Source of the DNA: Phycisphaeraceae bacterium
Lineage (GTDB): Bacteria; Planctomycetota; Phycisphaerae; Phycisphaerales; UBA1924
Assembly (NCBI GenBank): GCA_019636845.1
Contig: JAHBWV010000002.1
Location: 35,655-99,654 of the forward strand
Direction of reading: 5' to 3'
DNA: 64,000 bases
In this document: piece by piece, positions 16,350 to 20,411 of the stretch
How positions within the stretch are numbered: the first letter of the stretch is position 1
Layout of the letters: every line of letters begins with the position of its first letter
Made by a program: the position numbers and the translations under genes
Notes under the pieces: generated by a model
What the model was told of the DNA's origin: nothing
The model's input: the letters and a program-made list of their open reading frames with translations, nothing else
Databases searched by the model: none

Positions 16350-19300
16350 TCATCTGGAAGGCGTGTGGCGTTTCCGAAATGGCAACGTGTCAAAGACGTG
16401 GATGGTCTGGTCGAACTTGTATCTGGCAACCAGGCGTGTGCCGTCCGAACTGAGTTGGAAGATGTCGAACCCATCCTCGTGCGAAGCCTCCGGTCTGAGC
16501 ACCAGCACCTCGCGCCCGGTTGCGGTTTCCCATACGCGGATGGTGTTGTCGAGCGAGGCCGTGAAGATGCGAGAGCCATCCGGGCTGAATATCGCGCGAT
16601 CGATAGCCCACGCGTGGCCCTTCAGCGTGCTGACTGTCTCCCCGGTGTCTGTGTCAACGACAACGCACCCCGCGTTCACGAAGTAGGCCATACGCGAGCC
16701 GTGGCTGTCGAACGATGCGACACCGAACCTCTGCCAGCCATCGAAGGCGGCCTGGTCGATCTCGGTAAGGACTCGATGAGCGCCGGAATCAGTCTCCCAG
16801 AGGCGAATCGTGCGATCTTCAGCCCGGGTCGCGAGGAATCTTCCAGAGGGATCGAACAGCACCTGCACCACGTGGCCGGAGTGCCCGTTGAGCGTCTGGA
16901 CTAATCGGCCGGATTCCACGTCGTACAGCTTCAGGGAGTGGTCTGACCAGGCGATCGCGGCGACAGACCCGTCCGCGTTGAGTGTGCCGCAGGGGTATCC
17001 GTCGCCCGTTGCTTCGAAGAGCGTGTCACCCGTGTCCATGTCGTACACACGCACGAGGCCGTTCCCGAGGCAGGCGAGGAGCCGCTTGCCGGCGTGGTCA
17101 CATCGGAGAGAGACCGGATCGCGTTCGGGCGTGCCGCCGTGGCGCTCTGAGATCTCGCGGCTTCGGATGGAAGGATTGTTGATGTGAACGGGGATGACGG
17201 CCTCGCCGAGGGACGCTGCGGTGGCGACATTCCATGCCCGAACGGAGGAGCCACGGCGCGTGAAGACCCGAGTTCCATCGTGGCTGAAGAACGCGCTCTG
17301 GATCCCGGCGTGGCCCTCCCACGCTTCCGGGCTTGGTATCGTCCATGTCGAAGACGGTCGGCCATTGTCAACATCGATGAGCGCGGCAGTGGCTCCTCCG
17401 CTCCAGTGGGGTGCGAGGATGTGCGTTCCGTTGAAGAGAGAGTTGTGAGCCTTCTCGAATCCAACGCGATAGATCGGGTCGTCGGGGGCCTCAAACGACG
17501 GTTGTGGGAGGGTGGTTGCATCCCAGATCCGGAAGGTGCCATCCCATGCGTAGCTGACAATCTTCGAGCCATCGGGGCTGTATGTCGTATTGATCCACGA
17601 ATCGCCGTGGCCAGCGAGTTTGGCCAGACGCTTCCCGGTGTTCGCGTCCCAGATGCAGACGAAGGGGCCTGCGTTCGCGACGATTCGCGCTCCATCGGGA
17701 GAGAACTCCCCACCATGCACGCCGTGAAGCTCCTCCGTGAACTCCTGGACGAGCTTGCCCGTGGCGATCTCATAGACTCGTCCCGCCTCGTTGTATGGGC
17801 GAACGAGCACGTGTCGTCCATCCGGAGAGACAGCGGCGCCGAGTGTCATCCACGCTGTCTCGAATGTGCCGATCGGTGTGAGCGAACTTGCGTCCCATGT
17901 GGAGTAGCGAGAGCCATGTCCATCGCTGGTCGTGGTGAGGACGATCTCGCCCCCGACATAGAGGTCGAGGTCGTTCGATAGCCCTTCGACAGAGTACAGG
18001 CACTCTCCAGAGGTTCCGTCCCAGAGGTCGATGCGGTACTTCGCGTTCTCGCCTGTGGCGACGCCCCACGTCAGGATGTCCGTGTCGTTCGCGGAGAATC
18101 GGGCCCGGAACTGCTTGTATCTCGCACTCGCGTCGATGGATGTGATGACCGATCCGTCCGATGCATTCAACACCTTGCCGGCGGCGTAGATCCTTTCGCC
18201 TGAGGATGAGAACGTCGGCTCGCCCGGCAGCACGTACCGTGGTTGCAGCGTGCGGCAGTCCCATGCCTCCGCGAAGCTTGTCTTGGAGCCGGTGAGCGGA
18301 TCGATGCGAGAGCCGAGAACACCGAGCAGGCCGGCACGGGGTGATGAACTGAAATGACGCACCACGACACTTTCGGGGCTCGATGAGATCTCCTCGCCGG
18401 TGTGTGCATCCAAGCAGACGATCTGCCCGCACTCGGAGAGGGCTGCGACGAGCTCTCCATTTGAGACGAAATCGGCTCTCATCCAGTGCGCCGGCTCTCC
18501 CGGCGCGAGGACGGCGAATCGGCTTGCGTCCGAGCTTGCCCACAGATACTGCCATTCCCAGTTGCGAAGATGCTCCGCGCACGCGCTCAGGTAGCGACGC
18601 GCTGAATAAGGGTCAGAGAGCGCGGCGAAGATGTTGGCAACATACGCGGACCACTCGGCGGCATCCGTCTTGTCGCGCAACTCCTCCTGTGCCGCAAGCA
18701 CCCTCTGCGCGGTCTCCATGGACATCGCCGCGAGTTCTCGGAGATCCGCAGGAAGAGACTCAGGCGGCTGATTCGGATCAAATCCGTTGCCCGGCGTGAT
18801 CGCGGTGTTGTTCAACGAACCGACGTATCTCACGTCCGGATCATCGAAGCGCCCCTGCAAGAACGCAACGAGTGCTCGGTTCGCTCTCTCGGCAAAATGG
18901 CGTTGCATCTCAGCCCGTGCCGCACTCTCGCCCGCGAGCCGCGCCTGATAGTCCGCCTCGACGCTCGCTCGCGCCGCACGGTTCCACCCCCACGTCGTCC
19001 CCGCAATCCCCACCAGCAACGCCGCAGCCACCGCGCTCCCCGCAATCACCGGCCCCTTGTTACGCCGCACAAACTTCCGCAACCGATACCCCGCGCTCGG
19101 CGGCGCGGCAACCACCGCCTCGCCCTTCAAGTGCCGCTCAACATCCGCGGCCAATGCGCTCGGGGTTTCGTAACGCCGGGCGCGGTCCTTGTCGAGGGAC
19201 TTCATCACGATCCAGTCGAGCTCGCCGCGGAGAGTTGAGGGAGGGAAAGGGACTTTGCGTTTGGTCGCACCGCTCTCCAGAGCGGTGTGGCTCGGGTTAG

Positions 19301-20411
19301 TTCTTTCAACTGCTGGCCTGCCCTCTGCCACCTGAGCCGGATCAGAAGACACTTCTCTCGAGAGCGGTGCCACCGAAGAGGGAACCACCAAAGAAGAATC
19401 CACTTTCATCCGCTGCGTGACGCGCACGCTCGGCGTCGGCGGCTCTTCCTCCTTGATGATGCGACGCATCTCGTCCCACGCCGCCGAACGCAGCCGCTTC
19501 CCATCAAACGGCGTGTCGCCCGCCAGCAACTCGTACAACAGCACACCCAGCGCGTACACATCCGTCCGTGTGTCAATATCCGGCGACCCCTGGGCTTGCT
19601 CGGGGCTCATGTACTCGGGCGTGCCGATGAGCTGCCGATGCTCGGTGAAGAGCGTCTTGTCAGTCAGGCCGCCGGCGGATGCGGTGGCCTTGGCGATGCC
19701 GAAGTCGATGACGCGAGCGAAGGGCTTGCCGTCGGTCATGGTGACGAGCACGTTGCCGGGCTTGATGTCGCGGTGGATGATCCCCTTGGTGTGGGCGTGC
19801 TGCACGGCGGAGCAGACCTGGGCGAAGAGTTCGAGCCGGGCGCGGAGATCGAGGGTGTTGTTTGCCGCGAACTGTGTGATGGCATCACCGACGACGTATT
19901 CCATGACGAAGTAGGGGCGGCCGCCGCCGTGCTCGGTGATGGGAGTTGCGCCGGCATCCAGCACGCGGGCGATGTGCGGGTGGTCCATGAGGGCGAGGGC
20001 CTGGCGCTCGGCCTCGAAGCGCGCGATCACCTGCTTGGTGTCCATGCCGAGCTTGATGATCTTGAGGGCGACGCGCCGGCGGACGGGATCGGTCTGCTCG
20101 GCGAGGAAGACGGTACCGAAGCCACCCTCGCCGATGACCTGGAGGAGTTTGTAGGGGCCGACGCGCGAGCCGGGGGCTTCGGTGATGGTTGCGTTACGGA
20201 TGGTGGTCGCGGCGGTGGGGCTGGTCATGAACCCCCCAACGCCCGCGGCGTCGTGTGAGCCCAGCAGGGCTTCGACCTCGGCGCGGAGGGCGGGGTTGTT
20301 GCCGCAGAGCCGACCGAGCGCAGCAGCACGCTCGGTCGGCGGGAGGCCCGCAACCTCATCAAAGATCGAGCGAACGCGATCACGGTTCGGCTTGTTGTCA
20401 TGCTCGTTCAT
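16350..20411 (-). CDS. Ser/Thr protein kinase with a TM helix and a large WD40 beta-propeller region
   Basis: The kinase motifs are GEGGFGTV, VALK, HRDIKPGN, DFG and GTPEYMSPE. The TM helix is GPVIAGSAVAAALLVGIAGTTWGW. WD40 units include GHSGHVVQVLFDPSGRFLATRAEDRTIRLWE and GHAWAIDRAIFSPDGSRIFTASLDNTIRVWE. Confidence 0.92.
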   Translation of the reverse strand: MNEHDNKPNRDRVRSIFDEVAGLPPTERAAALGRLCGNNPALRAEVEALLGSHDAAGVGGFMTSPTAATTIRNATITEAPGSRVGPYKLLQVIGEGGFGTVFLAEQTDPVRRRVALKIIKLGMDTKQVIARFEAERQALALMDHPHIARVLDAGATPITEHGGGRPYFVMEYVVGDAITQFAANNTLDLRARLELFAQVCSAVQHAHTKGIIHRDIKPGNVLVTMTDGKPFARVIDFGIAKATASAGGLTDKTLFTEHRQLIGTPEYMSPEQAQGSPDIDTRTDVYALGVLLYELLAGDTPFDGKRLRSAAWDEMRRIIKEEEPPTPSVRVTQRMKVDSSLVVPSSVAPLSREVSSDPAQVAEGRPAVERTNPSHTALESGATKRKVPFPPSTLRGELDWIVMKSLDKDRARRYETPSALAADVERHLKGEAVVAAPPSAGYRLRKFVRRNKGPVIAGSAVAAALLVGIAGTTWGWNRAARASVEADYQARLAGESAARAEMQRHFAERANRALVAFLQGRFDDPDVRYVGSLNNTAITPGNGFDPNQPPESLPADLRELAAMSMETAQRVLAAQEELRDKTDAAEWSAYVANIFAALSDPYSARRYLSACAEHLRNWEWQYLWASSDASRFAVLAPGEPAHWMRADFVSNGELVAALSECGQIVCLDAHTGEEISSSPESVVVRHFSSSPRAGLLGVLGSRIDPLTGSKTSFAEAWDCRTLQPRYVLPGEPTFSSSGERIYAAGKVLNASDGSVITSIDASARYKQFRARFSANDTDILTWGVATGENAKYRIDLWDGTSGECLYSVEGLSNDLDLYVGGEIVLTTTSDGHGSRYSTWDASSLTPIGTFETAWMTLGAAVSPDGRHVLVRPYNEAGRVYEIATGKLVQEFTEELHGVHGGEFSPDGARIVANAGPFVCIWDANTGKRLAKLAGHGDSWINTTYSPDGSKIVSYAWDGTFRIWDATTLPQPSFEAPDDPIYRVGFEKAHNSLFNGTHILAPHWSGGATAALIDVDNGRPSSTWTIPSPEAWEGHAGIQSAFFSHDGTRVFTRRGSSVRAWNVATAASLGEAVIPVHINNPSIRSREISERHGGTPERDPVSLRCDHAGKRLLACLGNGLVRVYDMDTGDTLFEATGDGYPCGTLNADGSVAAIAWSDHSLKLYDVESGRLVQTLNGHSGHVVQVLFDPSGRFLATRAEDRTIRLWETDSGAHRVLTEIDQAAFDGWQRFGVASFDSHGSRMAYFVNAGCVVVDTDTGETVSTLKGHAWAIDRAIFSPDGSRIFTASLDNTIRVWETATGREVLVLRPEASHEDGFDIFQLSSDGTRLVARYKFDQTIHVFDTLPFRKRHTPSR
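19267..19374. repeat. REP-like palindromic element (family A) embedded in frame in the kinase gene
   Basis: GCACCGCTCTCCAGAGCGGTG lies at 19267-19287 and a further half-site AGAGCGGTGCCACC at 19361-19374. The span is 108 nt (36 codons) and encodes SVAPLSRE...SHTALESGA in the linker before LRGELDWIVMKSL. Confidence 0.5.

Follow-up and report, generated by a model that had tools for sequence, protein, structure and literature searches.

Short GC-rich palindromes with a terminal GTAG or GTGG tag have been described inside genes of bacteria, where the frame of the host ORF is left unbroken (Di Nocera, De Gregorio, and Rocco, 2013, BMC Genomics 14:522, PMC3733652). More than half of the intragenic inserts reported there are dimers, and they encode 20–30 aa; in Opitutus terrae GTAG-20 the tag has been mutated to GTGG in most elements. 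For the CGTC REPs, a class that includes RPE-4 and RPE-6, no dedicated transposase was reported (PMC3733652). The repeat analyzed here lies within a Ser/Thr kinase gene of a Phycisphaeraceae bacterium (genome G000), in a window of 64,000 nt, i.e., the whole stretch of DNA that was analyzed. Like the REPs reported there, it forms a short hairpin that is rich in GC and ends in a tetranucleotide tag, and its copies are found within ORFs as well as downstream of genes; O. terrae and the present host both belong to the PVC superphylum. It differs from them in its stem (CACCGCTCT/AGAGCGGTG), which is specific to one Phycisphaeraceae genus, in its modest copy number (5–61), and in its host gene, which is a Ser/Thr kinase here and a replication or repair gene in the earlier work. 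The kinase insert (41 aa) is also longer than the inserts described previously because of its 62-nt spacer, and a frame bias and the presence or absence among congeners are documented here in addition.

The locus also shares features with the REPIN-RAYT systems (Nunvar et al., 2010, PMC2817692; Bertels and Rainey, 2011, PMC3116915): two inverted REPs with a spacer, a RAYT in related genomes that is bracketed by the same REPs, changes that compensate each other and keep the stem, and a distribution that is limited to one lineage and looks like vertical inheritance. In classical REPINs, which lie outside genes, the spacer is conserved from copy to copy because the whole unit replicates, whereas the kinase insert is intragenic and has a unique spacer. 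G000 is without the cognate RAYT, which in related genomes is nested in valS and not free-standing.

A preliminary description of this DNA had compared the insert to the Rickettsia palindromic elements (RPEs). These were described by Ogata and colleagues in 2000 (cited in PMC3733652) and reportedly lie in frame in genes that are still functional, with the encoded peptide at the protein surface; RPE-1 is said to be a single element of 100–150 bp. The in-frame behavior is indeed shared, since the kinase ORF is uninterrupted across 1353 aa in the assembled sequence and the inserted peptide is modeled by AlphaFold2 as a low-confidence coil. The kinase insert, however, is a pair of 25-nt tagged hairpins and not one element, the phylum of Rickettsia is unrelated, and the sequence is apparently unrelated too; the likeness is one of behavior and not of membership. 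An Rfam scan of 18800–19900 found nothing, a result that does not bear on the RPEs. The closest precedent is the GTAG/GTGG REPs (PMC3733652), and the present family, unlike the CGTC REPs, has a candidate RAYT.

The insert in the kinase gene

We concluded that the stretch is very probably a REPIN-like inverted doublet of a genus-specific, GTGG-tagged REP, which was inserted in the G000 lineage and is translated as a 41-residue disordered loop. The coordinates of its parts are listed in Table 1. The Pfam scan of the host protein gave Pkinase at 144.5 bits plus WD40 families, and orthologues in three genomes of the same genus (G001, G003, and G004) are 89–91% identical over the kinase domain. An ECF sigma factor gene (20413–20994) lies immediately upstream of the kinase gene.

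Table 1. Positions of the kinase gene, its insert, and further repeat copies in the 64,000-nt window
Feature	Position	Strand	Basis or remark
Ser/Thr protein kinase with C-terminal WD40 beta-propeller, 1353 aa	16350..20411	-	ORF and Pfam
In-frame insert as translated, residues 346-386, SVAPLSREVSSDPAQVAEGRPAVERTNPSHTALESGATKRK	19254..19376	-	Protein and DNA alignments
REP unit 1, 24/25 to consensus CACCGCTCTGGAGAGCGGTGCCACC	19263..19287	-	Consensus match
Spacer between the REP units, 62 nt	19288..19349	.	blastn-short, local alignment
REP unit 2, CACTTCTCTCGAGAGCGGTGCCACC, 22/25	19350..19374	+	Inverted relative to unit 1, tags outward
Possible decayed 15-nt iterations of the half-site (GAAGAGGGAACCACC / AAAGAAGAATCCACT)	19375..19405	+	Direct reading
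Further REP copy, 24/25	11147..11171	-	G000 C2:46801-46825; edge of a weak ORF (codon-based classifier)
Further REP copy, perfect 25/25	32312..32336	-	G000 C2:67966-67990

Protein and DNA alignments indicated that the three same-genus orthologues are without ~33–36 aa exactly at the insert, which is the place and the size that had been predicted, and the kinase gene carries ~100–120 extra nt, with a net excess over its congeners of ~99–108 nt. The insert is also absent from the ten closest database homologues (P0002–P0011). Measured from "PS" to "GELDW", the loop has 67 aa here and 31–34 aa in the congeners; among 91 homologues the mode is 29 aa (59/91) and the range 28–87 aa, in agreement with the earlier estimate of a linker about twice as long as that of homologues. 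Codon log-odds were −0.16 per codon in the insert and +0.18 to +0.41 in its flanks, i.e., the codon usage of the insert is non-coding-like. Fast evolution of the loop blurs the precise junctions, and no flanking direct repeat or target-site duplication was identifiable at the insert by repeat-pair search and DNA alignment; the target site is unreadable because the loop sequence next to the insert departs from that of the orthologues as well.

The preliminary description had placed the insert in a linker between the catalytic core and a conserved helix, and this was not upheld. The Pkinase match ends at model position 219 of 263, just ahead of the insert, and AlphaFold2 modeled helices confidently after it (pLDDT 85–95 in the flanks). 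These two results place the site, most likely, in a loop within the C-lobe of the kinase. Residues 342–387 were predicted with pLDDT <50 as coil without secondary structure. The structure prediction proposed earlier as a check for a surface loop returned a loop that is disordered and is flanked by confidently modeled helices of the C-lobe.

The 108-nt minus-strand stretch described at first (19267–19374), which encodes SVAPLSRE...SHTALESGA within the kinase ORF, and its palindromic bounds at 19267–19287 and 19361–19374 were all found in place. The palindrome CACCGCTCT-cc-AGAGCGGTG at 19268–19287 has 9-nt arms that are 100% complementary. Unit 1 therefore keeps a perfect 9-bp palindrome; its tag is mutated from GGTGG to GGTCG, and it is read as (H)TALESGAT, the frame used by most intragenic copies. 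The sequence AGAGCGGTGCCACC does occur at 19361–19374, but it is the right arm of a degenerate full unit and not a third half-site as first thought. In this unit 2 the palindrome (19350–19369) is degenerate in its left arm and two stem pairs are broken, the CCACC tag is intact, and the translation runs in another frame than that of unit 1 (VAPLSREV). The arms of the inverted doublet (19260–19288 and 19349–19377) are 29 nt long, 83% complementary, and 60 nt apart. The iterations that follow unit 2 may be part of the element or ancestral Ser/Pro-rich loop codons, and their assignment is uncertain.

No second copy of the 62-nt spacer was detected in the genome by blastn-short, and local alignment gave no detectable relation to the interior of the G004 RAYT unit (p = 0.24 vs. 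shuffles). G000 has another tags-outward doublet, at C1:3160263/3160378, whose spacer differs from that in the kinase gene; G004 (L028) carries its orthologous counterpart. Two class assignments were rejected on these grounds. A replicating REPIN unit would fit the inverted doublet, but the spacer has no other copy and is unlike that of C1:3160263/3160378; the doublet falls short of a proven single replicating REPIN because its spacer is unique and unrelated to the interior of the RAYT cassette. A MITE would fit the inverted ends, but no flanking direct repeat accompanies them and the interior is unrelated to the cassette. The original label "REP/MITE-type" accordingly holds in its first half, made more precise as a GTGG-tagged, RAYT-associated REP doublet, and fails in its second, with no target-site duplication visible and the spacer unique.

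The repeat family and its candidate transposase

The family consensus, CACCGCTCTGGAGAGCGGTGCCACC, is tagged and 25 nt long; two arms of 9 nt enclose 2 central bases, and this short, GC-rich, imperfect palindrome can fold into a stem-loop. GGTGG/CCACC adjoins the stem in most copies, as expected of a REP tag. A search with the 25-mer (≤5 mismatches) gave 52 matches (46 loci) in G000 and 0 in the reversed genome, and a 20-mer (≤3 mismatches) gave 8 strand-matches in the 64-kb window vs. 0.02 expected. The family is present in 5/5 genomes of the genus, at 5–61 copies each, and was found in 0/26 genomes from other genera. Classical REP families typically have >100 copies, more than the present one. 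The ends of the kinase insert are therefore dispersed, genus-restricted, tagged palindromes, and its DNA is extra relative to the orthologues, which bears out the initial idea of a REP element tolerated inside a coding sequence. Variants that are altered on both arms with pairing kept (CACGGCTCT..AGAGCCGTG, CACTGCTCT..AGAGCAGTG, CACCGTTCT..AGAACGGTG, and CTCCGCTCT..AGAGCGGAG) indicate that the stem has been kept through compensatory changes, as judged from recurring variants. Several contigs of G002 end within the repeat. Runs of (AGAGCGGTGCCACCn)n, comparable to the iterations in Table 1, follow other REP copies, e.g., at G000 C1:85030–85073.

The repeat has zero stop codons in all six frames. 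About half of the G000 loci are intergenic and about half are in ORFs according to a crude codon-based classifier, which is ambiguous near gene 5' ends. Seven loci lie confidently within conserved proteins, and six of these seven copies use the TAL-E/Q-SG frame (binomial p = 0.007 vs. an expected 1/3). Besides the kinase, in-frame hosts include MetH, ParB, an M20 amidohydrolase, and an RM methyltransferase; the form met most often within genes is the single unit, as in MetH, the M20 amidohydrolase, and the RM methyltransferase. MetH reads GGTALQSG in G000 and G004 and "DAG" in G002, and ParB carries 0 REPs in G001, 1 in G000, and 2 in G004. We counted this presence and absence among congeners, seen in the sequences of MetH and ParB, as pointing to mobility of the REP.

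In G004, two perfect REPs with tags outward, at C1:1774731 (−) and C1:1775324 (+), bracket a RAYT segment that is nested in frame in valS. With NCBIfam NF047646 (REP-associated tyrosine transposase), the segment reaches 81.9 bits against a cut-off of 80 bits, and its best PDB match is E. coli TnpA-REP (4ER8). The same valS-nested REP-RAYT-REP layout occurs in G002, with NF047646 scores of 81.9–82.5 bits across the two genomes. The literature searched yielded no ORF-nested REP-RAYT-REP cassettes in valS or other housekeeping genes. In other genera, embedded RAYTs have a hairpin of like architecture, tagged with GGTGG or GGGTAG, on either side; the one in G007 has GGGTAG at the tag position. The repeats flanking the valS cassette belong to the same family as the kinase insert and share its tags-outward geometry and preferred frame (GGT.../...ESGAT). 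Unlike the cassette, the kinase insert has no transposase and consists only of two end repeats and an unrelated spacer.

Copies and perfect copies are most numerous in the two genomes holding the RAYT cassette: 40 of 61 and 31 of 50 copies are perfect in them, vs. 7 of 32 in G000 and 2 of 10 in G001. At the family level the correlation between RAYT and REP is imperfect, as G017 has 57 related GTGG-REPs and no RAYT match. The RAYT cassette is absent from the valS site of G000, and the Y1 gene of the 64-kb window scores as IS200, not as RAYT. No mobilizing enzyme can be named in G000 because no family-A REP flanks its stand-alone RAYT (C1:3209246–3209707, 91.9 bits).

Origin of the doublet and alternative readings

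The mobilizing enzyme would be a RAYT (an HUH/Y1 enzyme) that recognizes tag plus stem and acts on the REP units in the form of single-stranded hairpins. Such recognition of tag plus stem has been shown for E. coli TnpA-REP. The insertion in the kinase gene probably survived because its length kept the frame, it brought no stops, and the surface loop was permissive, and the insert would have no function of its own. The doublet now appears to be decaying: the tag of unit 1 is mutated, and unit 2 has two broken stem pairs. The presumed reason is that the valS-nested RAYT cassette, still present in the closest relatives of G000, has been lost from this genome.

The two units could also have come from two single-REP insertions ~60 nt apart in one permissive loop, with a piece of the ancestral loop trapped between them. 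We regard this as plausible though rather doubtful. Single units are the commonest form among intragenic copies, the spacer is unique in the genome, the two units are in different frames and decayed to different degrees, and MAFFT pairs part of the spacer (TCCGGCTCAGGTGGCAGAGGG) with the G004 loop (TCCGGCGCCTGTGGGGGGG), but this last similarity is short and of untested significance. The tags-outward geometry, which is that of the RAYT cassette and of C1:3160263/3160378, and the majority of dimers among the intragenic inserts of Di Nocera et al. (PMC3733652) argue for a doublet. A function that retained the insert, whether through an mRNA hairpin that modulates translation or mRNA stability or through a loop whose added length tunes kinase docking or regulation, is unlikely. 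The predicted RNA fold lets the two units pair as a long hairpin, and extragenic REPs have been reported as RNA elements (PMC3733652); the stability of the fold, however, is within that of shuffled controls (z = −1.2), and unit 2 has lost two stem pairs. The frame bias of intragenic copies shows selection on the encoded peptide, but it is equally explained by purifying selection against harmful peptides. The insert is limited to one genome, and the occurrence of REPs in many unrelated proteins speaks against a specific function, an argument also made by Di Nocera et al. (PMC3733652).

Repeat-mediated misassembly that put REP DNA into the kinase gene is very improbable. REPs do break assemblies of relatives, as the G002 contig ends show, but the insert is in frame and stop-free, and its unique spacer fits neither a collapsed nor a duplicated repeat. 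The locus lies in a 150-kb contig of a four-contig assembly, and equivalent in-frame copies are present in independent assemblies, including the single-contig G004. Strongly disfavored, and the least probable of the readings considered, is an ancestral long loop that was shortened by deletion in the relatives, with palindromes of local origin (inverted duplication or slippage in a low-complexity loop). It could draw on the highly variable loop length in homologues and on a more distant orthologue (L005, G011) that is likewise long-looped. Against it, the bounding 25-mers are near-identical to ~45 other genomic loci, the ten closest homologues are without the insert sequence, the long loops of other lineages are unrelated in sequence and built from their own repeat families, and the codon usage of the insert does not resemble that of coding DNA.

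We tentatively suggest, with somewhat less than even confidence, that the kinase insert is a single sign of a wider way of life in this genus. The GTGG-REPs would be non-autonomous partners of the RAYT cassette, which would lack start and stop codons of its own and reside in frame at a fixed site of valS. Both would persist preferentially where they are translated in permissive loops and in the favored frame (GGTALQSG / TALESGAT), and G000 would represent the "after loss" state, with orphaned REPs decaying inside genes. Since in-frame intragenic REP dimers, GTGG-tagged ones included, were known before (PMC3733652), the kinase insert is an event of a kind already described and adds no new principle. 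It is a clear and datable case of non-coding mobile DNA that has become protein, present in one genome and absent in three congeners, and it illustrates what makes such an insertion survivable: freedom from stops in any frame, a frame-keeping length, and a disordered landing loop. Together with MetH, ParB, and valS, it provides a five-genome comparative system, two genomes with the candidate transposase and three without, which could be used to follow the decay of a REP population after RAYT loss and to gauge to what extent the persistence of insertions depends on selection acting on the encoded peptide. The same kinase loop holds repeat insertions in other lineages, with three GTAG/GTGG REPs in L044 and a different inverted-repeat element in L043.

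The inserted repeat doublet and its place in the kinase

Re-reading of the sequence bore out the positions and the encoded peptide that the preliminary description had assigned to the palindromic stretch of the Ser/Thr kinase gene. Its account of three half-sites held for the perfect palindrome and for AGAGCGGTGCCACC, but the latter is the end of a second, degenerate full repeat unit. The two units form an inverted doublet with arms of 29 nt, 83% complementarity and a separation of 60 nt. When the palindromic 20-mer was searched at ≤3 mismatches, 8 strand-matches were found in the window vs. 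0.02 expected. The tryptic peptide predicted for this part of the kinase would be EVSSDPAQVAEGRPAVER. A 15-nt half-site, (AGAGCGGTGCCACCn)n, is apparently reiterated at 19361-19405, its repeats becoming more degenerate with distance from the palindrome, and similar runs occur elsewhere in the genome under study (G000; C1:85030-85073 and 1972570-1972640); the 15-nt period equals five codons, so that the translated peptides have a 5-aa periodicity.

The kinase orthologues of three congeneric genomes (G001, G003, and G004) are 89-91% identical to the G000 kinase over residues 1-350, and alignments at both the protein and the DNA level show them to be shorter by 33-36 residues (∼100-110 nt) exactly at the repeat-bounded stretch, which is where an excess of ∼36 aa had been proposed. 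The distance from "PS" to "GELDW" is 67 aa in the G000 kinase vs. 31-34 aa in the congeners; across 91 homologues the mode is 29 aa (59/91), in line with the earlier estimate that homologous linkers are roughly half as long. The insert sequence is absent from all ten closest database homologues, and its codon log-odds are non-coding-like (-0.16 per codon vs. +0.18 to +0.41 in the flanks). Since the loop flanking the insert has itself diverged in the DNA alignment, the junctions are blurred and a target-site duplication is unreadable.

An AlphaFold2 model of kinase residues 60-480 (51-sequence alignment; mean pLDDT 75, pTM 0.71) predicted residues 342-387 (model 283-328) as a coil of pLDDT below 50 with no secondary structure, between confident helices (pLDDT 85-95 after the insert). 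The Pfam Pkinase match ends at position 219/263 of the domain model, immediately ahead of the insert. This early end and the confident flanking helices indicate that the site is most likely a loop inside the kinase C-lobe, rather than the linker between catalytic core and conserved helix in which the insert had been placed. The same loop carries insertions in other Phycisphaerae lineages: a tandem array of three 45-nt units, each of which forms a hairpin with a GTAG/GTGG tag (L044 1267-1394), and an inverted-repeat element whose 27-nt arms show 96% complementarity (L043 1237-1424). Both are independent of the G000 insert.

Coordinates of the kinase gene, REP copies and RAYT cassettes (positions without contig label refer to the window)
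Feature	Position	Strand	Remarks
Ser/Thr kinase ORF, 1353 aa	16350-20411	minus	Pkinase domain and C-terminal WD40 propeller (Pfam)
Palindrome of REP unit 1	19268-19287		Perfect palindrome CACCGCTCT-cc-AGAGCGGTG; inverted-repeat search
REP unit 2	19350-19374		Degenerate, terminating in AGAGCGGTGCCACC
Further family A copies in the window	11147-11171; 32312-32336
In-frame REP, MetH	G000 C1:1728505-1728529
In-frame REP, ParB	G000 C1:3469522-3469546
In-frame REP, M20 amidohydrolase	G000 C1:55320-55344
In-frame REP, restriction-modification methyltransferase	G000 C1:3476885-3476909
In-frame REP, zinc-ribbon membrane protein	G000 C1:3480281-3480305
REP-RAYT-REP in frame in valyl-tRNA synthetase	L021 1232-1849 (G004:C1:1774731-1775348)
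REP-RAYT-REP in frame in valyl-tRNA synthetase	L025 (G002:C254:6843-7460)
Nested in-frame RAYT domain, other genera	L039		G020 valS
Nested in-frame RAYT domain, other genera	L041		G008 valS
Nested in-frame RAYT domain, other genera	L040		G013 dnaE
Nested in-frame RAYT domain, other genera	L042		G007 miaA

Family A repeats and their in-frame copies

The repeat family (family A, consensus CACCGCTCTGGAGAGCGGTGCCACC) carries a GGTGG/CCACC tail where classical REPs carry the GTAG tag, and stem pairing is preserved in variants altered on both arms. At ≤5 mismatches the consensus gave 52 matches, or 46 loci, in the 3.67-Mb G000 genome and 0 in the reversed genome. At ≤3 mismatches there are 32, 10, 50, 5, and 61 copies in the five congeneric genomes; the family was not found in 26 genomes of other genera. 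Across the same bacterial family, related hairpins that carry the GTGG tag on other stems are widespread.

Some copies belong to larger arrangements. Tandem arrays with periods of 35, 51, and 72 nt were observed in L024 (G004:C1:3139783-3139912), L026 (G002:C29:11001-11229), and G002:C23:6-174, and the 51-nt unit recurs within parB of G004. A CRISPR reading was rejected because the segments between repeats are identical or near-identical in L024 and L026; these 35- and 51-nt arrays are BIME-like tandem duplications. A REP doublet between a gene ending ...IVKF-stop and serA is common to G000 (C1:3160263-3160402) and G004 (L028, G004:C1:2654980-2655110), with REPs conserved and spacer diverged. 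The likely serA start codon lies within this spacer, so that translation may run through one of the REPs and add TALESGAT at the N-terminus. Multi-copy genes beginning MVAH... have an in-frame REP near the N-terminus (G000 C1:8155, 917861, 1965981, 2618228, and 2820459; L022 151-1290), and the G004 gene has an additional REP mid-protein. These gene copies are similar well beyond the REP, so part of the family A count stems from a larger repeat.

Genic and intergenic calls came from a home-made codon-log-odds ORF classifier, which placed about half of the G000 family A loci within ORFs. Seven copies could be assigned with confidence to the interior of conserved proteins: two are in the kinase and the others in five further genes. 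MetH presents a clean polymorphism, with GGTALQSG in G000 and G004 and "DAG" in G002 between flanks that are 97% identical; at its junction, cleaner than those of the kinase insert, 9 nt are replaced by 30 nt, which is not a simple insertion. The ParB loop has its canonical short form in G001 and contains a single REP in G000 and two REPs in G004. The REP core contains no stop codon in any of the six frames. The symmetric TAL-E/Q-SG frame is used by 6/7 of the confident intragenic copies (p = 0.007 vs. an expectation of 1/3), a bias that suggests selection acting on the peptide they encode.

In-frame intragenic REPs have been described previously and were most numerous in the PVC bacterium Opitutus terrae, with more than half of them being dimers that encode 20-30 aa (Di Nocera et al., 2013; PMC3733652); REPs in frame within genes are also mentioned by Quentin et al. 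(10.1101/279083). The kinase insert is thus a further case of a known phenomenon. It resembles the GTAG-20 REPs of O. terrae, among which GTGG is the predominant tag (Di Nocera et al., 2013; PMC3733652), in both its tag and its in-frame dimeric form.

The candidate transposase and the origin of the insert

In two congeners, G002 and the single-contig genome G004, perfect family A copies in inverted orientation, tags outward, bracket a ∼570-nt segment inside the valyl-tRNA synthetase gene (valS); this geometry is exactly that of the kinase doublet. The segment scored 81.9 bits on the NCBIfam model NF047646, "REP-associated tyrosine transposase" (RAYT; cut-off 80), and among PDB entries it matches E. 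coli TnpA-REP (4ER8) best. The HUH motif and catalytic Tyr are intact; the cassette itself has neither a start codon nor a stop codon. In G000 valS (C1:2287673-2288170), a 17-aa loop, NREAQLDPVKRGAEREA, stands in place of the ∼213-aa cassette of its closest relatives, and no close homologue of the cassette enzyme was found in G000. The cassette genomes are the richest in copies and in perfect copies (40/61 and 31/50 vs. 7/32 in G000 and 2/10 in G001), and the low share in G000 is as expected if its copies were orphaned. That the valS RAYT is the partner of family A and the G000 copies are orphans is supported, not proven. The RAYT-REP link is weakened by three results: neither a family A REP nor a strong hairpin was found in the flanks of the stand-alone RAYT of G000 (C1:3209246-3209707); the only Y1 gene of the window (29149-29595) is of IS200 type (NF033573, 63 bits, vs. 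just 28.6 bits for RAYT); and G017, a 97%-complete genome in which a related GTGG-tagged REP (GGTGGCACAGGCGTCCCGCCTGTGC) is present 57 times, gave no NF047646 match at E ≤ 1e-5. None of the 11 Pfam Y1_Tnp matches in G000 is tightly flanked by a family A repeat.

The best-supported reading is that the REP units were probably inserted, in one or two events, by a RAYT (HUH/Y1) via a single-strand hairpin, as suggested by the bracket geometry in relatives and the known behavior of E. coli TnpA-REP. The Y1 gene of the window was rejected as the mobilizing RAYT on its IS200 score and because the copy downstream, GTGGCGCCGCTTTCCAGAGC... at 29654-29685, ∼60 nt beyond its stop codon, is only a degenerate family-A-like one. 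Derivation of the kinase doublet from a RAYT cassette by deletion was unsupported, since the similarity of the 62-nt spacer to the G004 cassette interior was not significant (p = 0.24); the spacer has no second copy anywhere in the G000 genome and is weakly alignable to the G004 kinase loop. At the RNA level, an Rfam scan of 18800-19900 returned nothing at E ≤ 1, and the fold energy of the insert is unremarkable (z = -1.2). Following RAYT-mediated insertion, we propose that the doublet was retained because the frame was kept, stop codons were absent and the site is a disordered loop; at present it would be a neutral passenger in decay.

RAYT cassettes nested in housekeeping genes

The nested RAYT cassettes are a more unusual observation than the kinase insert, and no description of such cassettes in housekeeping genes was found in the literature searched. 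Each nested RAYT of the other genera lies between its own inverted hairpins, tagged GGTGG or GGGTAG. The valS insertion site is identical in G004, G008, and G020, which represent three genera and two families. The catalytic Tyr has been lost in the G008 valS copy (VSIAENPV).
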